Position numbers and translations under genes: made by a program. Shown here one piece after another: positions 3,618-43,563 of a DNA stretch of 64,000 bases; position 1 is the stretch's first letter; every line of letters begins with the position of its first letter. This DNA is from a phage: sequence record PZ154895.1, one strand, 5' to 3'. Under the pieces are notes generated by a model. That model was given only the letters and a program-made list of their open reading frames with translations, did no database searches and was not told where the DNA came from.

Positions 3618-4820
3618 ATGAAAGTATGCATTTTTATGGCTCGAGGTCTTGAAGGTTGTGGCGTAACTAAATTTTCTCTTGAGCAACGTGATTGGTTTAT
3701 TAAAAATGGTCATGAAGTAACTTTGGTTTATGCTAAAGATAAATCATTTACTCGTAATTGCGCACATGATTATAAGTCATTTTCAATTCCGGTTTTATTG
3801 GCAAAAGAATACGATAAAACACTTAAGTTGGTAAATGATTGTGATATTCTAATTATCAATTCAGTTCCTGCTACTTCAGTAGAAGAAGACACTATTAATA
3901 ACTATAAAAAAATTATTGATAACATTAAACCTTCAGTTCGTGTTGTAGTTTATCAGCATGACCATTCTTCTCTTTCTTTGCGCCGAAATTTGGGATTAGA
4001 AGAAACTGTTCGTCGAGCTGATGTTATTTTTAGTCATTCTGATAATGGTGATTTTAATAAAGTTCTGATGAAAGAATGGTATCCGGAAACTGTTTCTCTG
4101 TTTGATGATATTGAAGAAGCACCGACCGTATATAACTTTCAGCCTCCTATGGATATTGCGAAGGTTCGATCAACTTACTGGAAAGATGTTTCTGAAATTA
4201 ACATGAATATCAACCGTTGGATTGGTCGTACTACTACATGGAAAGGCTTTTATCAGATGTTTGATTTTCACGAAAAACATCTTAAACCTGCAGGACTAAG
4301 TACTATTATGGAAGGTCTGGAACGTTCTCCAGCGTTCATTCCTATTAAAGAAAAAGGAATTCCATACGAGTATTATCGTCTTCATCAAGTAGACCAAATT
4401 AAAATTGCTCCTAATTTGCCAACGCAAATTCTCGACCGTTATGTAAATAGCGAAATGCTTGAACGCATGAGTAAATCCGGATTTGGTTATCAGCTGAGTA
4501 AATTAGATAAAAAATATCTACAACGTTCTTTAGAATATACTCATCTCGAGCTTGGTGCATGCGGAACAATTCCAGTATTTTGGAAATCTACTGGCGAAAA
4601 TTTAAAATTCCGTGTTGATAATACTCCGTTAATTTCTCATGATAGCGGTATCGTTTGGTTTGATGAAAATGACATGGAATCAACATTTGAGCGTATTAAA
4701 GAACTGTCATCTGACCGAGCTCTTTATGACCGTGAACGCGAAAAAGCTTATGAATTTTTGTATCAGCATCAAGATTCAAGCTTCTGCTTTAAAGAACAGT
4801 TTGACATTATTACAAAATAA
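3618..4820 (+). CDS. a-gt: DNA alpha-glucosyltransferase
   Basis: 400 aa; near-identical along its length to T4 alpha-gt as recalled (ends ...SSFCFKEQFDIITK). Confidence 0.95.
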   Translation: MKVCIFMARGLEGCGVTKFSLEQRDWFIKNGHEVTLVYAKDKSFTRNCAHDYKSFSIPVLLAKEYDKTLKLVNDCDILIINSVPATSVEEDTINNYKKIIDNIKPSVRVVVYQHDHSSLSLRRNLGLEETVRRADVIFSHSDNGDFNKVLMKEWYPETVSLFDDIEEAPTVYNFQPPMDIAKVRSTYWKDVSEINMNINRWIGRTTTWKGFYQMFDFHEKHLKPAGLSTIMEGLERSPAFIPIKEKGIPYEYYRLHQVDQIKIAPNLPTQILDRYVNSEMLERMSKSGFGYQLSKLDKKYLQRSLEYTHLELGACGTIPVFWKSTGENLKFRVDNTPLISHDSGIVWFDENDMESTFERIKELSSDRALYDREREKAYEFLYQHQDSSFCFKEQFDIITK

Positions 4821-6877: not shown

Positions 6878-7064
6878 CATTAACGATGAATTCATAGCAA
6901 ATATTGATTACACCGAAGAAGATTCTAGATATGTTGGAATAATTTATATCACATCAAAAGCAGCACAAGGTGTTGTTTGCATGGCTGAATTTGATGAATA
7001 CTTTTTAGATTATGATGATATGATAGAATGGTCTAAAAGATACATTAAAAGGAATCTTTTGTGA
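6849..7064 (+). CDS. hypothetical protein, 71 aa
   Basis: Track ORF 6801 trimmed to ATG 6849; stop overlaps gene 46 start. Confidence 0.4.
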   Translation: MHTVKFSTFDINDEFIANIDYTEEDSRYVGIIYITSKAAQGVVCMAEFDEYFLDYDDMIEWSKRYIKRNLL

Positions 7065-8749
7065 AGAATTTTAAACTAAACCGAGTTAGGTATCAAAATA
7101 TAATGTCAGTAGGTGGAAATCCTATTGACATTCAACTAGATAAGGTTCAAAAAACTCTTATTACTGGGCGAAATGGTGGTGGTAAGTCTACTATGTTAGA
7201 AGCCATCACATTTGGGCTTTTTGGCAAGCCATTTCGTGATGTAAAGAAAGGTCAATTAATAAACAGCACAAATAAGAAAGAACTTTTAGTTGAACTGTGG
7301 ATGGAATATGATGAGAAAAAGTACTATATCAAAAGAGGACAAAAACCAAACGTTTTCGAAATCACCGTTAACGGTACACGTCTTAATGAATCTGCCAGCA
7401 GTAAAGATTTCCAAGCAGAATTTGAACAGCTTATCGGAATGTCATATGCCAGTTTCAAGCAGATTGTTGTCCTTGGTACAGCAGGGTATACCCCTTTCAT
7501 GGGTTTGTCGACCCCTGCGCGAAGAAAGCTTGTGGAAGACCTGCTCGAGGTAGGAACATTAGCTGAAATGGATAAGCTTAATAAAGCACTAATACGTGAA
7601 TTAAATTCACAAAACCAAGTGCTTGATGTTAAAAAAGATAGTATTATCCAACAAATTAAAATATATAATGATAACGTTGAACGCCAGAAAAAATTAACTG
7701 GTGATAACCTTACTCGTCTGCAGAACATGTATGATGATTTGGCAAAAGAAGCTAGAACGTTAAAATCGGAAATAGAAGAAGCTAATGAAAGATTAGTTAA
7801 TATTGTTTTGGATGAAGACCCGACTGATGCATTTAATAAAATCGGTCAAGAAGCATTTTTAATTAAATCAAAAATTGACTCGTATAATAAAGTCATTAAT
7901 ATGTATCACGAAGGTGGATTATGTCCAACCTGTTTGTCACAATTAAGTTCCGGTGATAAAGTTGTTTCTAAAATTAAAGATAAAGTTTCTGAATGCACGC
8001 ATTCATTTGAACAGCTTTCAACACATCGTGATAATTTAAAAGTTCTTGTTGATGAATACCGAGATAATATTAAAACCCAGCAGACGTTGGCAAATGATAT
8101 TCGCAATAAAAAGCAATCCTTAATCACGACGGTAGATAAAGCTAAAAAAGTTAAAGCGGCTATAGAAAAAGCATCATCTGAGTTTATTGACCATGCTGAT
8201 GAAATAGCACTGCTTCAAGAAGAACTTGATAAAATTGTTAAGACAAAAACTAATTTAGTAATGGAAAAATACCACAGAGGAATTTTGACTGATATGCTCA
8301 AAGATTCTGGTATTAAAGGTGCTATTATTAAAAAGTACATTCCATTATTTAATAAGCAGATTAACCATTATCTTAAAATAATGGAAGCGGATTATGTGTT
8401 TACATTAGATGAAGAATTTAATGAAACAATTAAATCCCGTGGTCGTGAAGATTTTAGTTATGCTTCATTTAGTCAAGGTGAAAAAGCACGAATTGATATT
8501 GCTCTTTTATTTACTTGGCGTGATATTGCTGAAAAAGTTTCAGGTGTTAAAATAAGCTGTTTATTTCTTGATGAAGTATATGACGGTGCATTTGATGCTG
8601 AAGGTATTAAAAATGTAGCTAAAATTTTAGATGGTTTGAAGGATACCAACTTCTTCATAATTTCGCATAAAGACCATGACCCACAAGAATATGGTCAGCA
8701 TATTCAGATGGAAAAAGTTGGTAGATTTAGTTTAGCTAAGATTAGCTAG
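7061..8749 (+). CDS. 46: gp46 recombination nuclease subunit (SbcC/Rad50-like ATPase)
   Basis: 562 aa, GTG start; Walker A GRNGGGKST, zinc hook CPTC, coiled coil, Walker B LFLDE. Confidence 0.93.
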   Translation: MKNFKLNRVRYQNIMSVGGNPIDIQLDKVQKTLITGRNGGGKSTMLEAITFGLFGKPFRDVKKGQLINSTNKKELLVELWMEYDEKKYYIKRGQKPNVFEITVNGTRLNESASSKDFQAEFEQLIGMSYASFKQIVVLGTAGYTPFMGLSTPARRKLVEDLLEVGTLAEMDKLNKALIRELNSQNQVLDVKKDSIIQQIKIYNDNVERQKKLTGDNLTRLQNMYDDLAKEARTLKSEIEEANERLVNIVLDEDPTDAFNKIGQEAFLIKSKIDSYNKVINMYHEGGLCPTCLSQLSSGDKVVSKIKDKVSECTHSFEQLSTHRDNLKVLVDEYRDNIKTQQTLANDIRNKKQSLITTVDKAKKVKAAIEKASSEFIDHADEIALLQEELDKIVKTKTNLVMEKYHRGILTDMLKDSGIKGAIIKKYIPLFNKQINHYLKIMEADYVFTLDEEFNETIKSRGREDFSYASFSQGEKARIDIALLFTWRDIAEKVSGVKISCLFLDEVYDGAFDAEGIKNVAKILDGLKDTNFFIISHKDHDPQEYGQHIQMEKVGRFSLAKIS

Positions 8750-9458
8750 GTTTATATTTACAGTTATCATTATGCCATCTTGATAAATTTCCGAAAGTGG
8801 TAACTTTACCACAATGGACGCAAGTACCAGTCTTTTCAGTTTTCTTGCGTCCATTTGGATTTTTCTTGCAGAAATTTCTATGCGCTGCGATAACGCATTT
8901 CTTGCCTATCATTCCACAGAATTCGCAGGATGTTTCTTCAAGAACGATTGCTTTAAGCCCGTTTGAGATATTATTTCTGTGTTCTTTAGACATTGGTGGT
9001 CTAACTTTAGGATTAGGGTGATTTGGACAGTTATCAAAATGCCAACGATTCATATTCCCGCTTAATCCAGACTTACCGCAATGAGGACAAGTTAGTCTTG
9101 CTTTATTAGCTACTGCATCAGACATTTTCTTTCGTGTCTCCTGGGAGAATTCTTTGTTCTTTTCTATTTCCCAGAGTTTACGACGAATCCAACCGAAAGT
9201 TTTATTGTTGCGTTTAGCGTATTTCGTGGAAACTGTCATCATGTTAGCAGCATAGACTAATTTTGGTTCAGAAGGATAAATTTTTACTAAAAGTTGATGA
9301 GCTACATAGTGCTCTTCTGGCGTTAAATCTACTAAGTTTGAAGCATCATCACTACCGTTTAAACAGCGTGGTATAATGTGATGAGATTCAGTATAGCAAT
9401 CAAGTTTTCGAGATTTAGCATTAGAGATTAACTTTTCATAAATTAGTTTATAATTCAT
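8742..9458 (-). CDS. HNH homing endonuclease with three C-terminal CxxC...W..DNC zinc-finger repeats
   Basis: 238 aa; HNH motif ESHHIIPRCLNGSDDASNLVDLTPEEHYVAH; opposite strand to flanking genes. Confidence 0.7.
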   Translation of the reverse strand: MNYKLIYEKLISNAKSRKLDCYTESHHIIPRCLNGSDDASNLVDLTPEEHYVAHQLLVKIYPSEPKLVYAANMMTVSTKYAKRNNKTFGWIRRKLWEIEKNKEFSQETRKKMSDAVANKARLTCPHCGKSGLSGNMNRWHFDNCPNHPNPKVRPPMSKEHRNNISNGLKAIVLEETSCEFCGMIGKKCVIAAHRNFCKKNPNGRKKTEKTGTCVHCGKVTTFGNLSRWHNDNCKYKPS

Positions 9459-13089: not shown

Positions 13090-15786
13090 ATGAAAGAATT
13101 TTATATCTCTATCGAAACAGTCGGAAATAATATTGTTGAGCGTTATATTGATGAAAACGGAAAGGAACGTACTCGTGAAGTAGAATATCTTCCGACTATG
13201 TTTAGGCATTGTAAGGAAGAGTCAAAGTACAAAGACATTTACGGTAAAAATTGCGCTCCTCAAAAATTTCCATCAATGAAAGATGCACGAGACTGGATGA
13301 AGCGAATGGAAGACATCGGTCTCGAAGCTCTTGGTATGAACGATTTTAAACTCGCTTATATCAGTGATACATATGGTTCAGAAATTGTTTATGACCGAAA
13401 ATTTGTTCGTGTAGCTAACTGTGACATTGAGGTTACTGGCGATAAATTTCCTGACCCAATGAAAGCAGAATATGAAATTGATGCTATCACTCATTATGAT
13501 TCAATTGACGACCGTTTTTACGTCTTTGATTTGTTGAATTCAATGTACGGTTCAGTATCAAAATGGGATGCAAAGTTAGCTGCTAAACTTGACTGTGAAG
13601 GTGGTGATGAAGTTCCTCAAGAAATTCTTGACCGAGTAATTTATATGCCATTTGATAATGAGCGTGATATGCTCATGGAATATATTAATCTCTGGGAACA
13701 GAAACGACCTGCTATTTTTACTGGTTGGAATATTGAGGGATTTGACGTTCCGTATATCATGAATCGCGTTAAAATGGTTCTTGGTGAACGTAGTATGAAA
13801 CGCTTCTCTCCAATCGGTCGAGTAAAATCTAAACTAATTCAAAATATGTACGGTAGCAAAGAAATTTATTCTATTGATGGCGTATCTATTCTTGATTATT
13901 TAGATTTGTACAAGAAATTCGCATTTACTAATTTGCCATCATTCTCTTTGGAATCAGTTGCTCAACATGAAACCAAAAAAGGTAAATTGCCGTACGATGG
14001 TCCTATTAATAAACTTCGTGAGACTAATCATCAACGATACATTAGTTATAACATTATTGACGTAGAATCAGTTCAAGCAATTGATAAAATTCGTGGGTTT
14101 ATCGATCTAGTTTTAAGTATGTCTTATTATGCTAAAATGCCTTTTTCTGGTGTAATGAGTCCTATTAAAACTTGGGATGCTATTATTTTTAACTCACTGA
14201 AAAGTGAACATAAGGTTATTCCTCAACAAGGTTCGCACGTTAAGCAGAGTTTTCCAGGCGCATTTGTGTTTGAACCTAAACCGATTGCCCGTCGATACAT
14301 TATGAGTTTTGACTTGACATCTCTGTATCCTAGCATTATTCGTCAGGTTAACATTAGTCCTGAGACTATTCGTGGACAGTTTAAAGTTCATCCAATTCAT
14401 GAATATATCGCAGGAACAGCTCCTAAGCCAAGTGATGAATATTCTTGTTCTCCGAATGGATGGATGTATGATAAGCACCAAGAAGGTATCATTCCAAAGG
14501 AAATCGCTAAAGTATTTTTCCAGCGTAAAGATTGGAAAAAGAAAATGTTCGCCGAAGAAATGAATGCCGAAGCTATTAAAAAGATTATTATGAAAGGTGC
14601 AGGGTCTTGCTCAACTAAGCCAGAAGTTGAACGATATGTTAAGTTCAGTGATGATTTCTTAAATGAATTATCGAATTACACCGAATCTGTTCTTAATAGT
14701 CTGATCGAAGAATGTGAAAAAGCAGCTACACTTGCTAACACAAATCAGCTGAACCGTAAAATTCTTATCAACAGTCTTTATGGTGCTCTTGGTAATATTC
14801 ATTTCCGTTACTATGATTTGCGAAATGCTACTGCTATCACAATTTTTGGTCAAGTTGGTATTCAGTGGATTGCTCGTAAAATTAATGAATATCTGAATAA
14901 AGTGTGTGGAACTGATGGTGAAGATTTCATCGCAGCAGGTGATACTGATTCGGTATATGTTTGTGTAGATAAAGTAATTGAAAAAGTAGGTCTTGACCGC
15001 TTTAAAGAACAAAATGATTTAGTTGAATTCATGAATCAGTTTGGTAAGAAAAAGATGGAACCTATGATTGATGTTGCATATCGTGAGTTATGTGATTATA
15101 TGAATAACCGCGAGCATCTGATGCATATGGACCGTGAAGCTATTTCTTGCCCTCCACTCGGTTCAAAGGGTGTTGGTGGATTTTGGAAAGCGAAAAAACG
15201 TTATGCTCTGAACGTTTATGATATGGAAGATAAGCGATTTGCTGAACCACATCTAAAAATCATGGGTATGGAAACTCAACAGAGTTCAACACCAAAAGCA
15301 GTGCAAGAAGCTCTCGAAGAAAGTATTCGTCGTATTCTTCAGGAAGGTGAAGAGTCTGTCCAAGAATACTATAAGAACTTTGAGAAAGAATACCGTCAAC
15401 TTGACTATAAAGTTATTGCTGAAGTAAAAACCGCGAACGATATAGCAAAATATGACGATAAGGGTTGGCCAGGATTTAAATGTCCGTTCCATATTCGTGG
15501 TGTGCTAACTTATCGTCGAGCTGTTAGCGGTTTAGGTGTAGCTCCAATTTTGGATGGAAATAAGGTAATGGTTCTTCCGTTACGTGAGGGAAATCCATTT
15601 GGTGACAAGTGTATTGCTTGGCCGTCGGGCACAGAACTTCCAAAAGAAATTCGTTCTGATGTACTGTCTTGGATTGACTACTCAACTTTGTTCCAAAAAT
15701 CGTTTGTTAAACCGCTTGCGGGCATGTGTGAATCGGCAGGTATGGACTATGAGGAAAAAGCTTCGTTAGACTTCCTGTTTGGCTGA
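13090..15786 (+). CDS. 43: gp43 DNA polymerase (family B, proofreading)
   Basis: 898 aa, same length as T4 gp43; MKEFYISIETVGNNIVERYIDENGKER...; no intein or intron. Confidence 0.97.
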   Translation: MKEFYISIETVGNNIVERYIDENGKERTREVEYLPTMFRHCKEESKYKDIYGKNCAPQKFPSMKDARDWMKRMEDIGLEALGMNDFKLAYISDTYGSEIVYDRKFVRVANCDIEVTGDKFPDPMKAEYEIDAITHYDSIDDRFYVFDLLNSMYGSVSKWDAKLAAKLDCEGGDEVPQEILDRVIYMPFDNERDMLMEYINLWEQKRPAIFTGWNIEGFDVPYIMNRVKMVLGERSMKRFSPIGRVKSKLIQNMYGSKEIYSIDGVSILDYLDLYKKFAFTNLPSFSLESVAQHETKKGKLPYDGPINKLRETNHQRYISYNIIDVESVQAIDKIRGFIDLVLSMSYYAKMPFSGVMSPIKTWDAIIFNSLKSEHKVIPQQGSHVKQSFPGAFVFEPKPIARRYIMSFDLTSLYPSIIRQVNISPETIRGQFKVHPIHEYIAGTAPKPSDEYSCSPNGWMYDKHQEGIIPKEIAKVFFQRKDWKKKMFAEEMNAEAIKKIIMKGAGSCSTKPEVERYVKFSDDFLNELSNYTESVLNSLIEECEKAATLANTNQLNRKILINSLYGALGNIHFRYYDLRNATAITIFGQVGIQWIARKINEYLNKVCGTDGEDFIAAGDTDSVYVCVDKVIEKVGLDRFKEQNDLVEFMNQFGKKKMEPMIDVAYRELCDYMNNREHLMHMDREAISCPPLGSKGVGGFWKAKKRYALNVYDMEDKRFAEPHLKIMGMETQQSSTPKAVQEALEESIRRILQEGEESVQEYYKNFEKEYRQLDYKVIAEVKTANDIAKYDDKGWPGFKCPFHIRGVLTYRRAVSGLGVAPILDGNKVMVLPLREGNPFGDKCIAWPSGTELPKEIRSDVLSWIDYSTLFQKSFVKPLAGMCESAGMDYEEKASLDFLFG

Positions 15787-15799
15787 TAGAATAAATCTA

Positions 15800-15820
15800 G
15801 GGACCTCCGGGTCCCTTTTT
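15800..15820 (+). terminator. intrinsic terminator GGGACC-TCCG-GGTCCC-TTTTT
   Basis: Directly after gene 43. Confidence 0.8.
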
Positions 15821-15903
15821 CATACAAGTAATATAAATCTATACTTAGGAAAAATAGATGATTCTAGGTCCTGTAAATTCATTAAAAATTTTTTCACAAA
15901 ACT

Positions 15904-15933
15904 GTTTACATCCCCGTTCTTCCATGGTACTAT
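15904..15933 (+). promoter_or_regulatory. T4-type early promoter cassette
   Basis: GTTTAC 15904-15909, 18 nt, TGGTACTAT; near-identical copy at 63326-63366. Confidence 0.6.
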
Positions 15934-15967
15934 ACAACTATCAACTGATATGGATTTGGAGAATAAA

Positions 15968-16204
15968 ATGAAAATTGTTTATGGTTGTTTAGCAGTGTGT
16001 TTAGTTGCATTAGCAACTGTTCCATTTATTGATATTGAAAATGACACTCAGAATGTGATTGAATCTAATACTATTATTCACATGAATGGTAAAGTATCAA
16101 CAAAAATTGATGATAATCTTCATATGAATACTAATGGAACGTTGGGTGTTCAATTAGGTAATACCTGTGTAAGCACTACTGGAGTAATTACTACTTGTAT
16201 TTGA
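15968..16204 (+). CDS. hypothetical secreted or membrane protein, 78 aa
   Basis: TTGGAGAATAAAATG leader; N-terminal hydrophobic signal-like segment. Confidence 0.45.
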   Translation: MKIVYGCLAVCLVALATVPFIDIENDTQNVIESNTIIHMNGKVSTKIDDNLHMNTNGTLGVQLGNTCVSTTGVITTCI

Positions 16205-16602: not shown

Positions 16603-16854
16603 ATGGAAACTTTAGTAGCAGGTTCAATTTTTATGGTTTTAGTTTCAGGCGTGTTGGCTATTATTATATACATGCTTCCATGGTTCATCGCCTTGATGCG
16701 TGGGTCAAAATCGACAGTAGGAATCTTTTTCACATCTTTACTGTTTAACTGGTCAATCATTGGTTGGTTTATTACATTTATTTGGTCAATTGCAGGTGAA
16801 ACTAAAAAATCTGTACAGCAAAATCAAGTAATTATCATCAGAGAGAAGGAATGA
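16603..16854 (+). CDS. imm: Imm superinfection immunity membrane protein (by size and position)
   Basis: 83 aa, two hydrophobic helices, between genes 43 and 42 as in T4. Confidence 0.6.
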   Translation: METLVAGSIFMVLVSGVLAIIIYMLPWFIALMRGSKSTVGIFFTSLLFNWSIIGWFITFIWSIAGETKKSVQQNQVIIIREKE

Positions 16855-17000
16855 AAAGCAAAATTTTAGCAGTATTGCTTTTAATCTTGATGATTATAAT
16901 AAGTATATACTATAGCGTAACAGTTCCTTGTATGATTCCAACGCTTATTATAGGGTGGAGTTTATTACTGTTACAAGTTAAATATGAATGCATCAATTGA
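16851..17000 (+). CDS. hypothetical small membrane protein, 49 aa
   Basis: ATGA overlap with imm stop; hydrophobic; not in track. Confidence 0.3.
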   Translation: MKSKILAVLLLILMIIISIYYSVTVPCMIPTLIIGWSLLLLQVKYECIN

Positions 17001-17007
17001 GGTTTAA

Positions 17008-17748
17008 ATGATTAACGATTATATGACAGTTGAAGAAATCCGTCTTGATTTGGGTCTTGCATTAAAGGAAAAAGATTTCGTAATTGATAAAACCGGTGTT
17101 AAAACTATTGAAATTATTGGTGCATCATTTGTAGCAGATGAACCTTTTATTTTTGGCGCTCTTAATGATGAATACATTCAACGTGAACTTGAATGGTATA
17201 AGTCTCAAAGTCTGTTTGTTAAAGATATTCCAGGTGAAACGCCGAAGATTTGGCAGCAGGTAGCATCTTCTAAAGGCGAAATTAACTCGAATTATGGTTG
17301 GGCCATCTGGTCAGAAGATAACTATGCCCAGTATGATATGTGTTTAGCTGAACTTGGTCAAAATCCTGATTCTCGACGCGGTATCATGATTTATACTCGT
17401 CCATCCATGCAGTTTGACTACAATAAAGATGGTATGTCAGATTTCATGTGTACGAATACAGTACAGTACCTGATTCGTGATAAGAAAGTCAATGCAGTAG
17501 TAAGCATGCGTTCAAATGACGTAGTCTTCGGATTCCGTAATGATTATGCGTGGCAAAAATACGTACTAGATAAATTAGTATCTGATTTGAATGCAGGTGA
17601 TTCAACTCGTCAGTATAAAGCAGGTTCCATTATATGGAATGTCGGGAGCCTTCATGTGTATTCCCGTCATTTTTATTTGGTTGACCATTGGTGGAAAACT
17701 GGCGAAACTCATATTGCGAAAAAAGATTATAACGGTGAGTGGAAATGA
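17008..17748 (+). CDS. 42: gp42 dCMP hydroxymethylase
   Basis: 246 aa; closely matches T4 gp42 as recalled. Confidence 0.95.
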   Translation: MINDYMTVEEIRLDLGLALKEKDFVIDKTGVKTIEIIGASFVADEPFIFGALNDEYIQRELEWYKSQSLFVKDIPGETPKIWQQVASSKGEINSNYGWAIWSEDNYAQYDMCLAELGQNPDSRRGIMIYTRPSMQFDYNKDGMSDFMCTNTVQYLIRDKKVNAVVSMRSNDVVFGFRNDYAWQKYVLDKLVSDLNAGDSTRQYKAGSIIWNVGSLHVYSRHFYLVDHWWKTGETHIAKKDYNGEWK

Positions 17749-18587
17749 TTCAATTCGTAATTCCAAGCTATCAACGCGGAGGGGCAGTTTCTGCCCTTGA
17801 TATGTTTCCGACTGATTATGAACCTCATATTGTAGTACGTGAACACGAAGAAAAAGCTTATTATGACGCTTACGGGTCTAGAGCTAAAATTATAACTATT
17901 CCTGATGATGTTAATGGAATTGCTGGTACTCGTAAAGCAATTACTGATATGTATGCAGGTCAACGAATCTGGATGATTGATGATGATACTACTATTCGTA
18001 TGAGTTCAATGCGAAAGAAAGATGATCGTCGCTGTGTAGATAAAATTAATCAATTAACTCGTGAACAGTTCTATGAATTGATTCAATACGTGGAAGATGC
18101 CATGGATTGCGGGTATTATCACGGCCATGCTCGTCTACCTATTTTTAAAATTACTTCATCTTGGGGTAATTATCGTGAAAATTCATACGGATTCACGAAT
18201 ACCTGGTATGATTTAGGAAAACTTACAACAGAACAAATTGGGTATGGAAAAATTGATTTATGCGAAGATATGTATGCATTTCTCAATTTAATTAATCAAG
18301 GTTATCCGCATTTGGCCTTGTTCAAATATCTAGTTGTATCTGGAAAAGCGCAAGCTCCTGGCGGATGTAGTTCAATTCGTAGTAATTCAAAACATAATAG
18401 AGCTCTTGAGCAAATCAATAGAGAGTTTCCAGAGCAAGCTCGTTGGAAAACTTCTAATATTGAAAAACGAAAATCGTTGGGTGAAGAAGACGAGCCATTA
18501 AAGGTTCTTCGCATGTGTGTTTCGCGCAAAGAAAAGTCAGAAGCATTTCATAAGTTTAATGCTATTCATCCAATAGCAGTTGATTAA
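17745..18587 (+). CDS. putative DNA-modifying glycosyltransferase (GT-A-like, DxD motif) occupying the beta-gt slot
   Basis: 280 aa; WMIDDDTTIRM acidic motif; ATGA overlap with gp42; too short and dissimilar to T4 beta-gt (351 aa). Confidence 0.6.
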   Translation: MIQFVIPSYQRGGAVSALDMFPTDYEPHIVVREHEEKAYYDAYGSRAKIITIPDDVNGIAGTRKAITDMYAGQRIWMIDDDTTIRMSSMRKKDDRRCVDKINQLTREQFYELIQYVEDAMDCGYYHGHARLPIFKITSSWGNYRENSYGFTNTWYDLGKLTTEQIGYGKIDLCEDMYAFLNLINQGYPHLALFKYLVVSGKAQAPGGCSSIRSNSKHNRALEQINREFPEQARWKTSNIEKRKSLGEEDEPLKVLRMCVSRKEKSEAFHKFNAIHPIAVD

Positions 18588-18611
18588 TGCCTAAATTTAT
18601 TGTGTTATAAT
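18587..18611 (+). promoter_or_regulatory. candidate middle promoter for uvsX
   Basis: Partial MotA box aTGCcTaA and extended -10 TGTGTTATAAT. Confidence 0.35.
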
Positions 18612-18664
18612 TACCCTATCTTTAACCAGTGAGGAAAATATAATGATGCCTATGGAAAAAATGA

Positions 18665-19846
18665 ATGTCTATTGCAGATTTAAAATCCCGTTTGATTAAA
18701 GCTTCCACTTCTAAAATGACTGCTGAACTGACTACATCTAAATTCTTTAATGAAAAGGATGTAATCCGTACAAAAATCCCAATGCTTAATATCGCTATTT
18801 CCGGTGCGATTGATGGTGGAATGCAGTCTGGTTTAACCATTTTTGCAGGTCCTTCTAAACACTTTAAATCAAATATGTCTTTGACTATGGTTGCGGCGTA
18901 TTTGAACAAATATCCTGATGCGGTTTGTTTATTCTATGATAGCGAATTTGGTATTACTCCAGCTTATTTGCGATCCATGGGAGTTGACCCGGAACGAGTA
19001 ATTCATACACCAATTCAGTCAGTTGAACAGCTGAAAATTGATATGGTGAATCAGCTTGAAGCTATTGAGCGCGGTGAAAAGGTTATTGTATTCATCGACT
19101 CAATCGGTAATATGGCTTCTAAGAAAGAAACGGAAGATGCCTTGAATGAAAAATCTGTGGCAGATATGACTCGTGCTAAATCACTGAAGTCATTATTCCG
19201 TATTGTTACTCCTTATTTTAGTATCAAAAACATTCCATGTGTTGCGGTTAACCATACAATTGAAACAATTGAAATGTTTAGTAAAACCGTGATGACAGGT
19301 GGTACAGGCGTAATGTATTCGGCTGATACTGTATTCATTATCGGTAAGCGTCAGATTAAAGATGGTTCTGATCTTCAGGGGTATCAATTTGTTCTAAATG
19401 TAGAAAAATCTCGTACCGTCAAAGAAAAAAGTAAATTCTTTATTGATGTTAAATTTGACGGTGGTATCGATCCTTATTCTGGATTGTTAGATATGGCTCT
19501 TGAATTAGGATTTGTAGTAAAACCTAAAAATGGCTGGTATGCTCGTGAATTTCTTGATGAAGAAACCGGCGAGATGATTCGCGAAGAAAAATCTTGGCGC
19601 GCAAAAGATACCAACTGTACTACATTCTGGGGTCCTTTATTTAAGCATCAACCATTCCGAGATGCTATTAAACGCGCTTATCAGTTGGGTGCTATTGATA
19701 GTAATGAAATTGTTGAAGCTGAAGTTGATGAATTAATTAACTCAAAGGTTGAAAAATTTAAATCTCCAGAAAGTAAAAGTAAATCAGCAGCTGATTTAGA
19801 AACTGACCTAGATCAGTTAAGTGATATGGAAGAATTTAATGAATAA
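18665..19846 (+). CDS. uvsX: UvsX recombinase (RecA-like)
   Basis: 393 aa; MSIADLKSRLIKAST... and C-terminal half match T4 UvsX. Confidence 0.95.
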   Translation: MSIADLKSRLIKASTSKMTAELTTSKFFNEKDVIRTKIPMLNIAISGAIDGGMQSGLTIFAGPSKHFKSNMSLTMVAAYLNKYPDAVCLFYDSEFGITPAYLRSMGVDPERVIHTPIQSVEQLKIDMVNQLEAIERGEKVIVFIDSIGNMASKKETEDALNEKSVADMTRAKSLKSLFRIVTPYFSIKNIPCVAVNHTIETIEMFSKTVMTGGTGVMYSADTVFIIGKRQIKDGSDLQGYQFVLNVEKSRTVKEKSKFFIDVKFDGGIDPYSGLLDMALELGFVVKPKNGWYAREFLDEETGEMIREEKSWRAKDTNCTTFWGPLFKHQPFRDAIKRAYQLGAIDSNEIVEAEVDELINSKVEKFKSPESKSKSAADLETDLDQLSDMEEFNE

Positions 19847-24913: not shown

Positions 24914-25432
24914 ATGGCATACTTTAATGAATGTTCACAACTGATCGAAGGCGCTGATAAAGCTCAAAATGAATACTGGGATATTCTCGGTGATGAAAAA
25001 GACCCACTACAGGTTATGCTTGATATGCAGAAATCTTTGCAGGTTCGTTTAGCTAAAGATAAACCTGAATATAACCGTCATCCTGATGATTTGGCTACTG
25101 CAGGCGAAGTTGTTGATTGGCTGCGTAATCAAAAAGATTATATTGACGATGAATTCCGTGAACTTCTGACTTCTCTTGGCGGCATGAGCAATGGTGAAAA
25201 AGATGCATCTGCTGTATGGAAGCCTTGGAAAGCTCAACATGGTGAACGCCGTGAAACTCTAATTACTGATTTGTCTCCGCAAGATCAGTTGGAAATTAAA
25301 TTCGAAATGATTGATATTCTTCATTTCGTTCTGAACATGTTCCAAGGTCTTGGTCTTACGGCTGAAGAAATCTTTAAACTTTATTATCTGAAAAATGCTG
25401 AAAACTTCGCTCGTCAAGACCGAGGTTATTGA
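24914..25432 (+). CDS. 56: gp56 dCTPase/dUTPase
   Basis: 172 aa from MAYFNECSQLIEGADKAQNEYWDILGDEKDPLQVMLDMQ...; matches T4 gp56; track start trimmed. Confidence 0.9.
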   Translation: MAYFNECSQLIEGADKAQNEYWDILGDEKDPLQVMLDMQKSLQVRLAKDKPEYNRHPDDLATAGEVVDWLRNQKDYIDDEFRELLTSLGGMSNGEKDASAVWKPWKAQHGERRETLITDLSPQDQLEIKFEMIDILHFVLNMFQGLGLTAEEIFKLYYLKNAENFARQDRGY

Positions 25433-34880: not shown

Positions 34881-34977
34881 AGTTTAAAATTTTTTCATAA
34901 AACTATATACATCAGTAGTTGATTATGGTACTATATCAATATCAACTACTGATACAGAAAACAACTTGGAGAATAAA

Positions 34978-35247
34978 ATGGAAAACTTAATTATCATCGA
35001 GCAATCTTTCAACGATTATGGTATGGCTTACGGTTATCGTGCGATAATGGAAGATTCTTGTGGATGTGTTATCGATATTGCTGAATGTAAAGATTTACTG
35101 CAGCTTTTGAAGATTGTTCGTAAAAATTGGGATTGTGAAAACATTAAAGTTCGTGTTGTAACGGAAGAAGAAACTGTTTTTCATGATGTAAAATTTGCCA
35201 AAGGTGCTGCTACTCTTCTGAAACGCATCGCTCCACTGTTCAATTAA
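34978..35247 (+). CDS. hypothetical protein, 89 aa
   Basis: TTGGAGAATAAAATG leader; track ORF trimmed. Confidence 0.45.
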   Translation: MENLIIIEQSFNDYGMAYGYRAIMEDSCGCVIDIAECKDLLQLLKIVRKNWDCENIKVRVVTEEETVFHDVKFAKGAATLLKRIAPLFN

Positions 35248-43206: not shown

Positions 43207-43391
43207 GTTCACTGTGGTGGTGTTTTGTTTGGTTAATTAGTATTCCAGTAATTTGTTTAACATTTACTTTTGTGATGAGGTTATTATGAAAATTTTGAAT
43301 TCTGTACTTATTGCTTGTGCGTGGTGGGTTGTGCAAGTTTCAGCGGTAGTAGTTGGTATTCACATTTATTACGAATATTTTTAAAAAAGTT

Positions 43392-43421
43392 GTTTACAAG
43401 ACTGTTCTTCCGTGGTACTAT
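43392..43421 (+). promoter_or_regulatory. early promoter cassette
   Basis: GTTTAC 43392-43397, 18 nt, TGGTACTAT. Confidence 0.55.
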
Positions 43422-43449
43422 TACCCTATCAACTACGGAGGAACAGAAA

Positions 43450-43563
43450 ATGAAAAAGATTGTTAAAGCTATATGGAATGTAGTTATAATACTAATAGTT
43501 TTGAGTATATTCCCAATCGTTTTAATGATTGATGTATTAAACGTTTACTTTGGATTTATGTGA
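43450..43563 (+). CDS. hypothetical small membrane peptide, 37 aa
   Basis: GGAGGAA RBS; single TM helix; track ORF 43315 trimmed. Confidence 0.3.
   Translation: MKKIVKAIWNVVIILIVLSIFPIVLMIDVLNVYFGFM

Follow-up and report, generated by a model that had tools for sequence, protein, structure and literature searches.

The gene between gene 42 and uvsX of a Tequatrovirus-type phage: very probably ba-gt, the secondary DNA glucosyltransferase gene of T2 and T6

Which enzyme is encoded between the dCMP hydroxymethylase gene 42 and uvsX, and which sugar does it add to the phage DNA? In T4, the slot after gene 42 holds beta-gt, which codes for 351 amino acids, and the homing endonuclease gene segA. 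In the DNA studied here (phage record PZ154895.1; 64,000 nucleotides, below called the window), the gap between gene 42 and uvsX (17749-18664) is ~0.9 kb long and is occupied by an ORF for 280 amino acids. A sequence-only reading of this DNA had interpreted the ORF as a glycosyltransferase of non-T4 type and had left the choice between a second sugar of the T2/T6 gentiobiosyl type and something different; as checks, it named a profile search, a structure prediction, and an alignment with the T6 enzyme. The features needed for the argument are the following.

3618-4820, plus strand: alpha-gt, the primary glucosyltransferase gene whose product makes the acceptor; T2-type allele, intact, 400 amino acids
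17008-17748, plus strand: gene 42, dCMP hydroxymethylase; 95.5% identity to T4 gp42 over 245 amino acids
17734-17739, plus strand: Shine-Dalgarno-like GGTGAG, 5 nt upstream of the ATG of the 280-residue ORF and within the end of gene 42
17745-18587, plus strand: ORF assigned to ba-gt (ggt), beta-glucosyl-HMC-alpha-glucosyltransferase; intact, 280 amino acids plus stop codon, with T2/T6, PHROG, and Pfam matches
17979-17987, plus strand: codons of D79-D80-D81, a DxD-type motif directly after a predicted strand (residues 74-77)
18264-18269, plus strand: codons of E174-D175 (CEDMY), a candidate catalytic-base motif, conserved in the family
18665-19846, plus strand: uvsX, the downstream edge of the slot; 90% identity to T4 UvsX, no segA in the gap
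24914-25429, plus strand: gp56-like dCTPase of the hmC pathway; tblastn with the NR1 dCTPase, 71.5% over 172 amino acids

Inspection of the sequence confirmed both the size of the gap and the extent of the ORF, which is full length and contains neither an internal stop codon nor a frameshift. The ORF listing opens the frame earlier, at GTG 17739; ATG 17745 is the start of the 843-nt ba-gt CDS in T2, NR1, Solly, and Geo. As had been noticed before, this start overlaps the end of gene 42: the TGA (17746-17748) shares bases with the ATG (17745-17747), which gives ATGA at 17745-17748. The GGTGAG site is identical in a nucleotide alignment of the window, T2, and T6. We infer that translation of ba-gt is coupled to that of gene 42 via the ATGA overlap. 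In a promoter scan of positions 16900-18800, promoter-like sites were no more frequent than in shuffled sequence, and a terminator scan of the same interval identified one hairpin, located within the ba-gt ORF. This G+C-rich hairpin (AGGGGCAG-TTT-CTGCCCTT, 8 pairs; 17780-17798, plus strand) lies in the 5' end of the gene, has a terminator-like score, and is unchanged in T2, T6, and the window. The record of phage fPS-65 has a terminator feature annotated somewhere beneath its ba-gt match.

The identity of the protein follows from its relatives. BLASTP over the full length gave 275 identical residues out of 280 for T2 (AP018813; 5 differences) and 273 out of 280 for T6 (AP018814; 7 differences); from the enzymes of Solly and NR1, the protein differs at 3 and 4 positions, respectively. 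PHROG 842, which is named beta-glucosyl-HMC-alpha-glucosyltransferase, matches with an E-value of 7e-88. The Pfam family TAGT (PF20691) scores above its gathering cut-off (37 bits versus 27.5 bits, E-value 4e-9), which is a weak similarity relating residues 5-207 to positions 4-205 of the 205 model positions; none of the Pfam GT2 models was matched at E-values up to 1. When the ORF was compared with 50,697 phage records by means of megablast, 480 records matched; in 475 of these, the match extends over 80% or more of the gene, with a nucleotide identity of 90-99%. Because hundreds of full-length homologues exist, the ORF is not a chance frame. The records bearing ba-gt are nearly all of the Tequatrovirus type and comprise phages of Escherichia, Shigella, Yersinia, Salmonella, and Citrobacter; in many of them the gene is annotated "beta-glucosyl-HMC-alpha-glucosyltransferase" and adjoins dCMP hydroxymethylase. 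The exact sequence of 280 amino acids is absent from a collection of 15 billion proteins, the closest phage records being 99.6% identical to it. There is very little doubt that the ORF is the Tequatrovirus gene ba-gt, encoding the secondary DNA glucosyltransferase of T2/T6-type phages; no evidence contradicting this assignment came up in the analysis.

This assignment settles the question of novelty, which the sequence-only reading had implied while naming near-identity to the T2/T6 enzyme as the finding that would speak against it. As the protein is 98% identical to both characterised beta-alpha-glucosyltransferases, it is a known enzyme. With its T2 and T6 counterparts it shares length, slot, ATGA overlap, the DDD and CED motifs, the alpha-gt partner, and the lack of an accompanying beta-gt. 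The window shares the order 42, ba-gt, uvsX with T2, T6, NR1, Solly, and Geo, and 20 kb around ba-gt are 97-98% identical to the Shigella phages SH-1 and SH-2 and to phage ime09. Because of the T2/T6-like protein, the same gene order, and this level of identity, the window reads as DNA of an ordinary T2/T6-type Tequatrovirus. The arrangement is the norm in Tequatrovirus (~475 records), and it is T4 that constitutes the exception. Enzyme, gene position, fold class, and product had all been published already; the original cloning of ba-gt (ggt) from T2 and T6 was reportedly the subject of Winkler & Rueger 1993, Nucleic Acids Res 21:1500.

The expectation that the enzyme in the beta-gt slot is not of the T4 type was borne out. 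T4 beta-gt has no BLASTP similarity to the window protein (best E-value 3.3), and for neither T4 beta-gt nor T4 segA was a tblastn match found anywhere in the 64-kb window; with regard to T4 itself, the sequence-only reading had rightly placed beta-gt in the slot and had missed segA. The two enzymes occupy the same slot, and both are associated with UDP-glucose, a beta linkage, and phage hmC DNA. They differ in fold, T4 beta-gt being a GT-B enzyme and ba-gt a GT-A enzyme according to our model and the literature, and in their place in the pathway: hmC itself is the substrate of T4 beta-gt, a primary transferase, whereas ba-gt, a secondary one, acts on the glucose placed by alpha-gt.

The motif WMIDDDTTIRM, which had been taken as a sign of a GT-A-type enzyme, corresponds to residues 76-86 of ba-gt, and this interpretation held. 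Residues D79-D81 are invariant in a 10-sequence family alignment reaching down to 32% identity, and the window protein retains every invariant column of this alignment. D175 is invariant and E174 nearly so in both family alignments. Given a GT-A fold, D79-D81 would hold the metal and UDP-glucose, and E174/D175 may be likened to the ED/TED motif of inverting GT2 enzymes, which makes them a candidate catalytic base. The mechanism is presumably inverting and metal-dependent, the latter property being deduced from the fold. Modeling with AlphaFold2, based on the 10-sequence family alignment, gave a structure of moderate confidence (pTM 0.69, mean pLDDT 68); residues 1-80 reach pLDDT values of 81-93, and residues 126-151 and 194-211 are below 50. 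The model consists of a single Rossmann-like nucleotide-sugar-binding domain and resembles solved GT-A structures, the sequence identity to the structural neighbours being 7-17%; the fold is predicted to be GT-A-like and not GT-B. A sequence search of the PDB returned only chance matches (E-values of 0.76 or worse) and no solved relative detectable by sequence. An AlphaFold3 model of the T6 enzyme has been placed in the GT-A superfamily as a sister to GT2, in contrast to T4 alpha-gt and beta-gt, which are GT-B enzymes (bioRxiv 10.64898/2025.12.06.692756; PMC13216743), and our prediction agrees with this placement. Members of TAGT (PF20691) and cellular GT-A enzymes of the GT2 type have in common with ba-gt the Rossmann-like core and a motif rich in Asp that follows a beta strand. 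However, the cellular enzymes act on a lipid or polysaccharide, whereas the acceptor of ba-gt is a sugar on DNA.

The function of ba-gt depends on the enzymes preceding it. alpha-gt, which the sequence-only reading had likewise described as intact, is identical to the T2, T6, and T4 proteins at 396, 366, and 364 of 400 residues, respectively, and differs from those of Solly and NR1 at 2-3 residues. The gp56-type dCTPase is far more diverged from its NR1 counterpart (71.5%) than the neighbouring genes are (95-99%), which suggests a mosaic allele. T2 and Geo have a Dam methyltransferase next to gp56, of which no homologue was found in the window. In the proposed pathway, gp56 and gp42 would turn the dCTP/dCMP pool into hm-dCMP, with hmC replacing C, and alpha-gt would attach an alpha-linked glucose to hmC in the DNA. 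The 280-residue enzyme would then add glucose derived from UDP-glucose in a beta-1,6 linkage onto the first glucose, yielding alpha-gentiobiosyl-hmC. Judged from the literature and from our own inference, the most likely function of ba-gt is hence a UDP-glucose-dependent, inverting beta-1,6 transfer onto alpha-glucosyl-hmC, because the protein is nearly identical to the T2/T6 enzymes and similar to those of Solly and NR1, because alpha-gt and the dCTPase are present, and because the window lacks a beta-gt.

Published work accords with such a pathway. The T2/T6 enzyme glucosylates alpha-glucosylated hmC to gentiobiosyl-hmC. Phages that possess transferases of the T-even type have, as a rule, a primary transferase, either alone or accompanied by a secondary one; the pair of an alpha-transferase and a secondary transferase is common, and the two primary transferases of T4 are a rare exception (PMC13216743). 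The DNA of the Tequatrovirus phages NR1 and Solly contains, according to HPLC/MS, about one-third 5-hmdC and two-thirds alpha-gentiobiosyl-mdC, and the authors point to a TAGT gene syntenic with T4 beta-gt (PMC13390438). Since ba-gt adjoins gene 42 and alpha-gt is kept, the DNA of the window phage should be both hydroxymethylated and doubly glucosylated, as had been supposed. With respect to the second sugar, the T2/T6-type gentiobiosyl option is favoured and the option of something different found no support, as phages whose enzyme is only 3-4 residues away carry alpha-gentiobiosyl-hmC (PMC13390438).

The ratio of mono- to di-glucosylation is the sole point which is unpredictable, as it lies beyond what a sequence alone can tell. 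Classically, gentiobiosylation amounts to 5% for T2 and 72% for T6 (values quoted in PMC11078745); given that the two ba-gt enzymes are just 6 residues apart, small differences between them can matter. Intermediate values were found for Geo, whose DNA contains hmC, mono-glucosyl, and gentiobiosyl forms at roughly 1:2:2 (PMC13390438). It is therefore worth considering whether the same enzyme might work at a low, T2-like output in the window phage, which would leave mostly mono-alpha-glucosyl-hmC and a few per cent of gentiobiosyl-hmC. Relative to Solly, its nearest characterised relative, the window enzyme carries the private or minority substitutions V12G, R92K, and V101I; the exchanges Y40N, D55G, and R106H of T6 are absent from it. 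None of these affects a family-invariant position, and it is V12G that may give some weight to a low output, as this private exchange adjoins the invariant R11 in the N-terminal IPSYQR motif; position 12, however, is naturally variable and is occupied by V, A, or P across the family. The T2 allele of alpha-gt, too, fits a T2-like pattern, but this type of alpha-gt also occurs in NR1 and Solly, at a distance of 1-3 residues from T2 and the window, and gentiobiosyl-mdC makes up about two-thirds in these phages. Moreover, the window enzyme has neither R11H nor P251S, which are private to T2. On balance, we regard a low output as improbable, though worth keeping in mind.

The alpha-gt proteins fall into two allele classes, one comprising T2, NR1, Solly, and the window and the other T6, T4, and Geo. 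Out of 400 residues, ~34 distinguish the two classes, with most of the differences in the stretches 47-118 and 221-298. The allele was considered as the determinant of the mono- to di-glucosylation ratio and was rejected, because NR1 and Solly are rich in gentiobiosyl-mdC in spite of their T2-type alpha-gt; Geo, with an alpha-gt of the T6/T4 type, is intermediate.

In ba-gt, the exchanges R11H and P251S occur in all three T2-type records; in the 10-sequence family alignment, R11 is invariant and P251 nearly so. They could be the cause of the low (~5%) gentiobiosylation of T2. As in T6, NR1, and Solly, the window enzyme keeps both residues (R11 at 17775-17777, P251 at 18495-18497). For this reason, a majority of gentiobiosyl-hmC, as in Solly and NR1, is the better guess for the window phage. 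The more comprehensive proposal that T2 ba-gt is a natural hypomorph and that, owing to the consensus R11 and P251, gentiobiosyl-hmC is in the majority in the window phage as it is in T6 and Solly, even though the alpha-gt is of the T2 type, is put forward only tentatively, as a possibility with the odds somewhat against it.

A more radical deviation from gentiobiosylation would be a TAGT enzyme with altered donor or acceptor, which uses arabinose or another hexose or acts directly on hmC, such that the second modification is not gentiobiose. The TAGT/GT-A family is broad, with members at 47-65% identity in phages of Klebsiella, Enterobacter, Salmonella, and Serratia, and arabinosylated cytosines, disaccharide forms included, are known as an alternative sugar decoration in the T4-like RB69 and its Mosigvirus relatives (PMC13390438). 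These arabinosyl phages, however, belong to another genus and use a different pathway; the name given to their nucleoside, 5-arabinosyl-2'-deoxycytidine, contains no methyl and is not that of an hmC derivative (PMC13390438). Unlike Mosigvirus, the window has the pair of alpha-gt and ba-gt, and it is set apart from the arabinosyl systems by their published description. Considering also the 98% identity to the T2 and T6 enzymes, the distance of 3-4 residues to phages with measured gentiobiosyl-hmC, the retention of all family-invariant residues, and the intact alpha-gt which makes the acceptor, an altered specificity is highly implausible.

That ba-gt is a decaying or inactive copy, as apparently in some laboratory stocks of T6 (two public T6 records, MH550421 and AP018814, carry lesions in the gene), is just as hard to believe for a full-length ORF with every invariant family column, the ATGA coupling, and the Shine-Dalgarno-like site preserved.

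The T6 lesions deserve a description of their own. In MH550421, codon 10 is an amber codon (CAG to TAG), which is why the CDS is annotated from the internal Met20. In AP018814 and its RefSeq copy, a deletion of 3 nt has removed one Asp of the DDD motif. Natural variation between DD and DDD was considered and rejected, because the deletion is confined to this record and its RefSeq copy; the gene spans 843 nt in MH550421 and in every other relative listed. The lesions may be mutations of laboratory stocks or sequencing errors, and the window gene has neither of them.

Further observations concern other parts of the window. An ORF of 238 amino acids (8742-9458, minus strand) lies directly past the end of an ORF of 562 amino acids on the opposite strand (7061-8749), which occupies the place of the annotated recombination endonuclease subunit of NR1. 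The shorter ORF matches NR1_187 at 99.6% identity and, at 44% identity, the N-terminal half of MobB, an HNH homing endonuclease of T4; it probably represents an inserted mobile homing-endonuclease gene, which T2, T4, and T6 lack at this site. Between imm and gene 42, a hydrophobic ORF of 49 amino acids (16851-17000, plus strand), whose start overlaps the imm stop, is kept at 88-90% in T2, T4, and T6; the records of NR1, Solly, and Geo have an annotation for it, in contrast to the T4, T2, and T6 records examined. The interval between DNA polymerase and imm.1 is variable and contains an ORF of 141 amino acids with a TTG start (15779-16204, plus strand). Its first ~100 residues are 53-62% identical to the corresponding sequence of T2, T4, and T6, and weak internal matches occur at 34888-34983 and 43366-43521 of the window.

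For annotation, the assignment of ba-gt means that the phage can be labelled as one whose hmC bears alpha-glucose and gentiobiose. On the basis of published work (PMC13216743, PMC11078745, PMC13390438), resistance to McrBC-type restriction would be predicted. In T6, deletion of ba-gt turns the DNA into a substrate of the Brig1 glycosylase and increases the sensitivity of the phage (PMC11078745); the DNA of the window phage would accordingly be protected from Brig1, albeit partially, and enzymes of the GmrSD/BrxU type should still be effective. The tentative reading of T2 ba-gt as a hypomorph bears on T2 more than on the window phage. In this respect, the window gene helps to frame an old question, namely how the nearly identical enzymes of T2 and T6 come to be associated with ~5% and ~72% gentiobiosyl-hmC.
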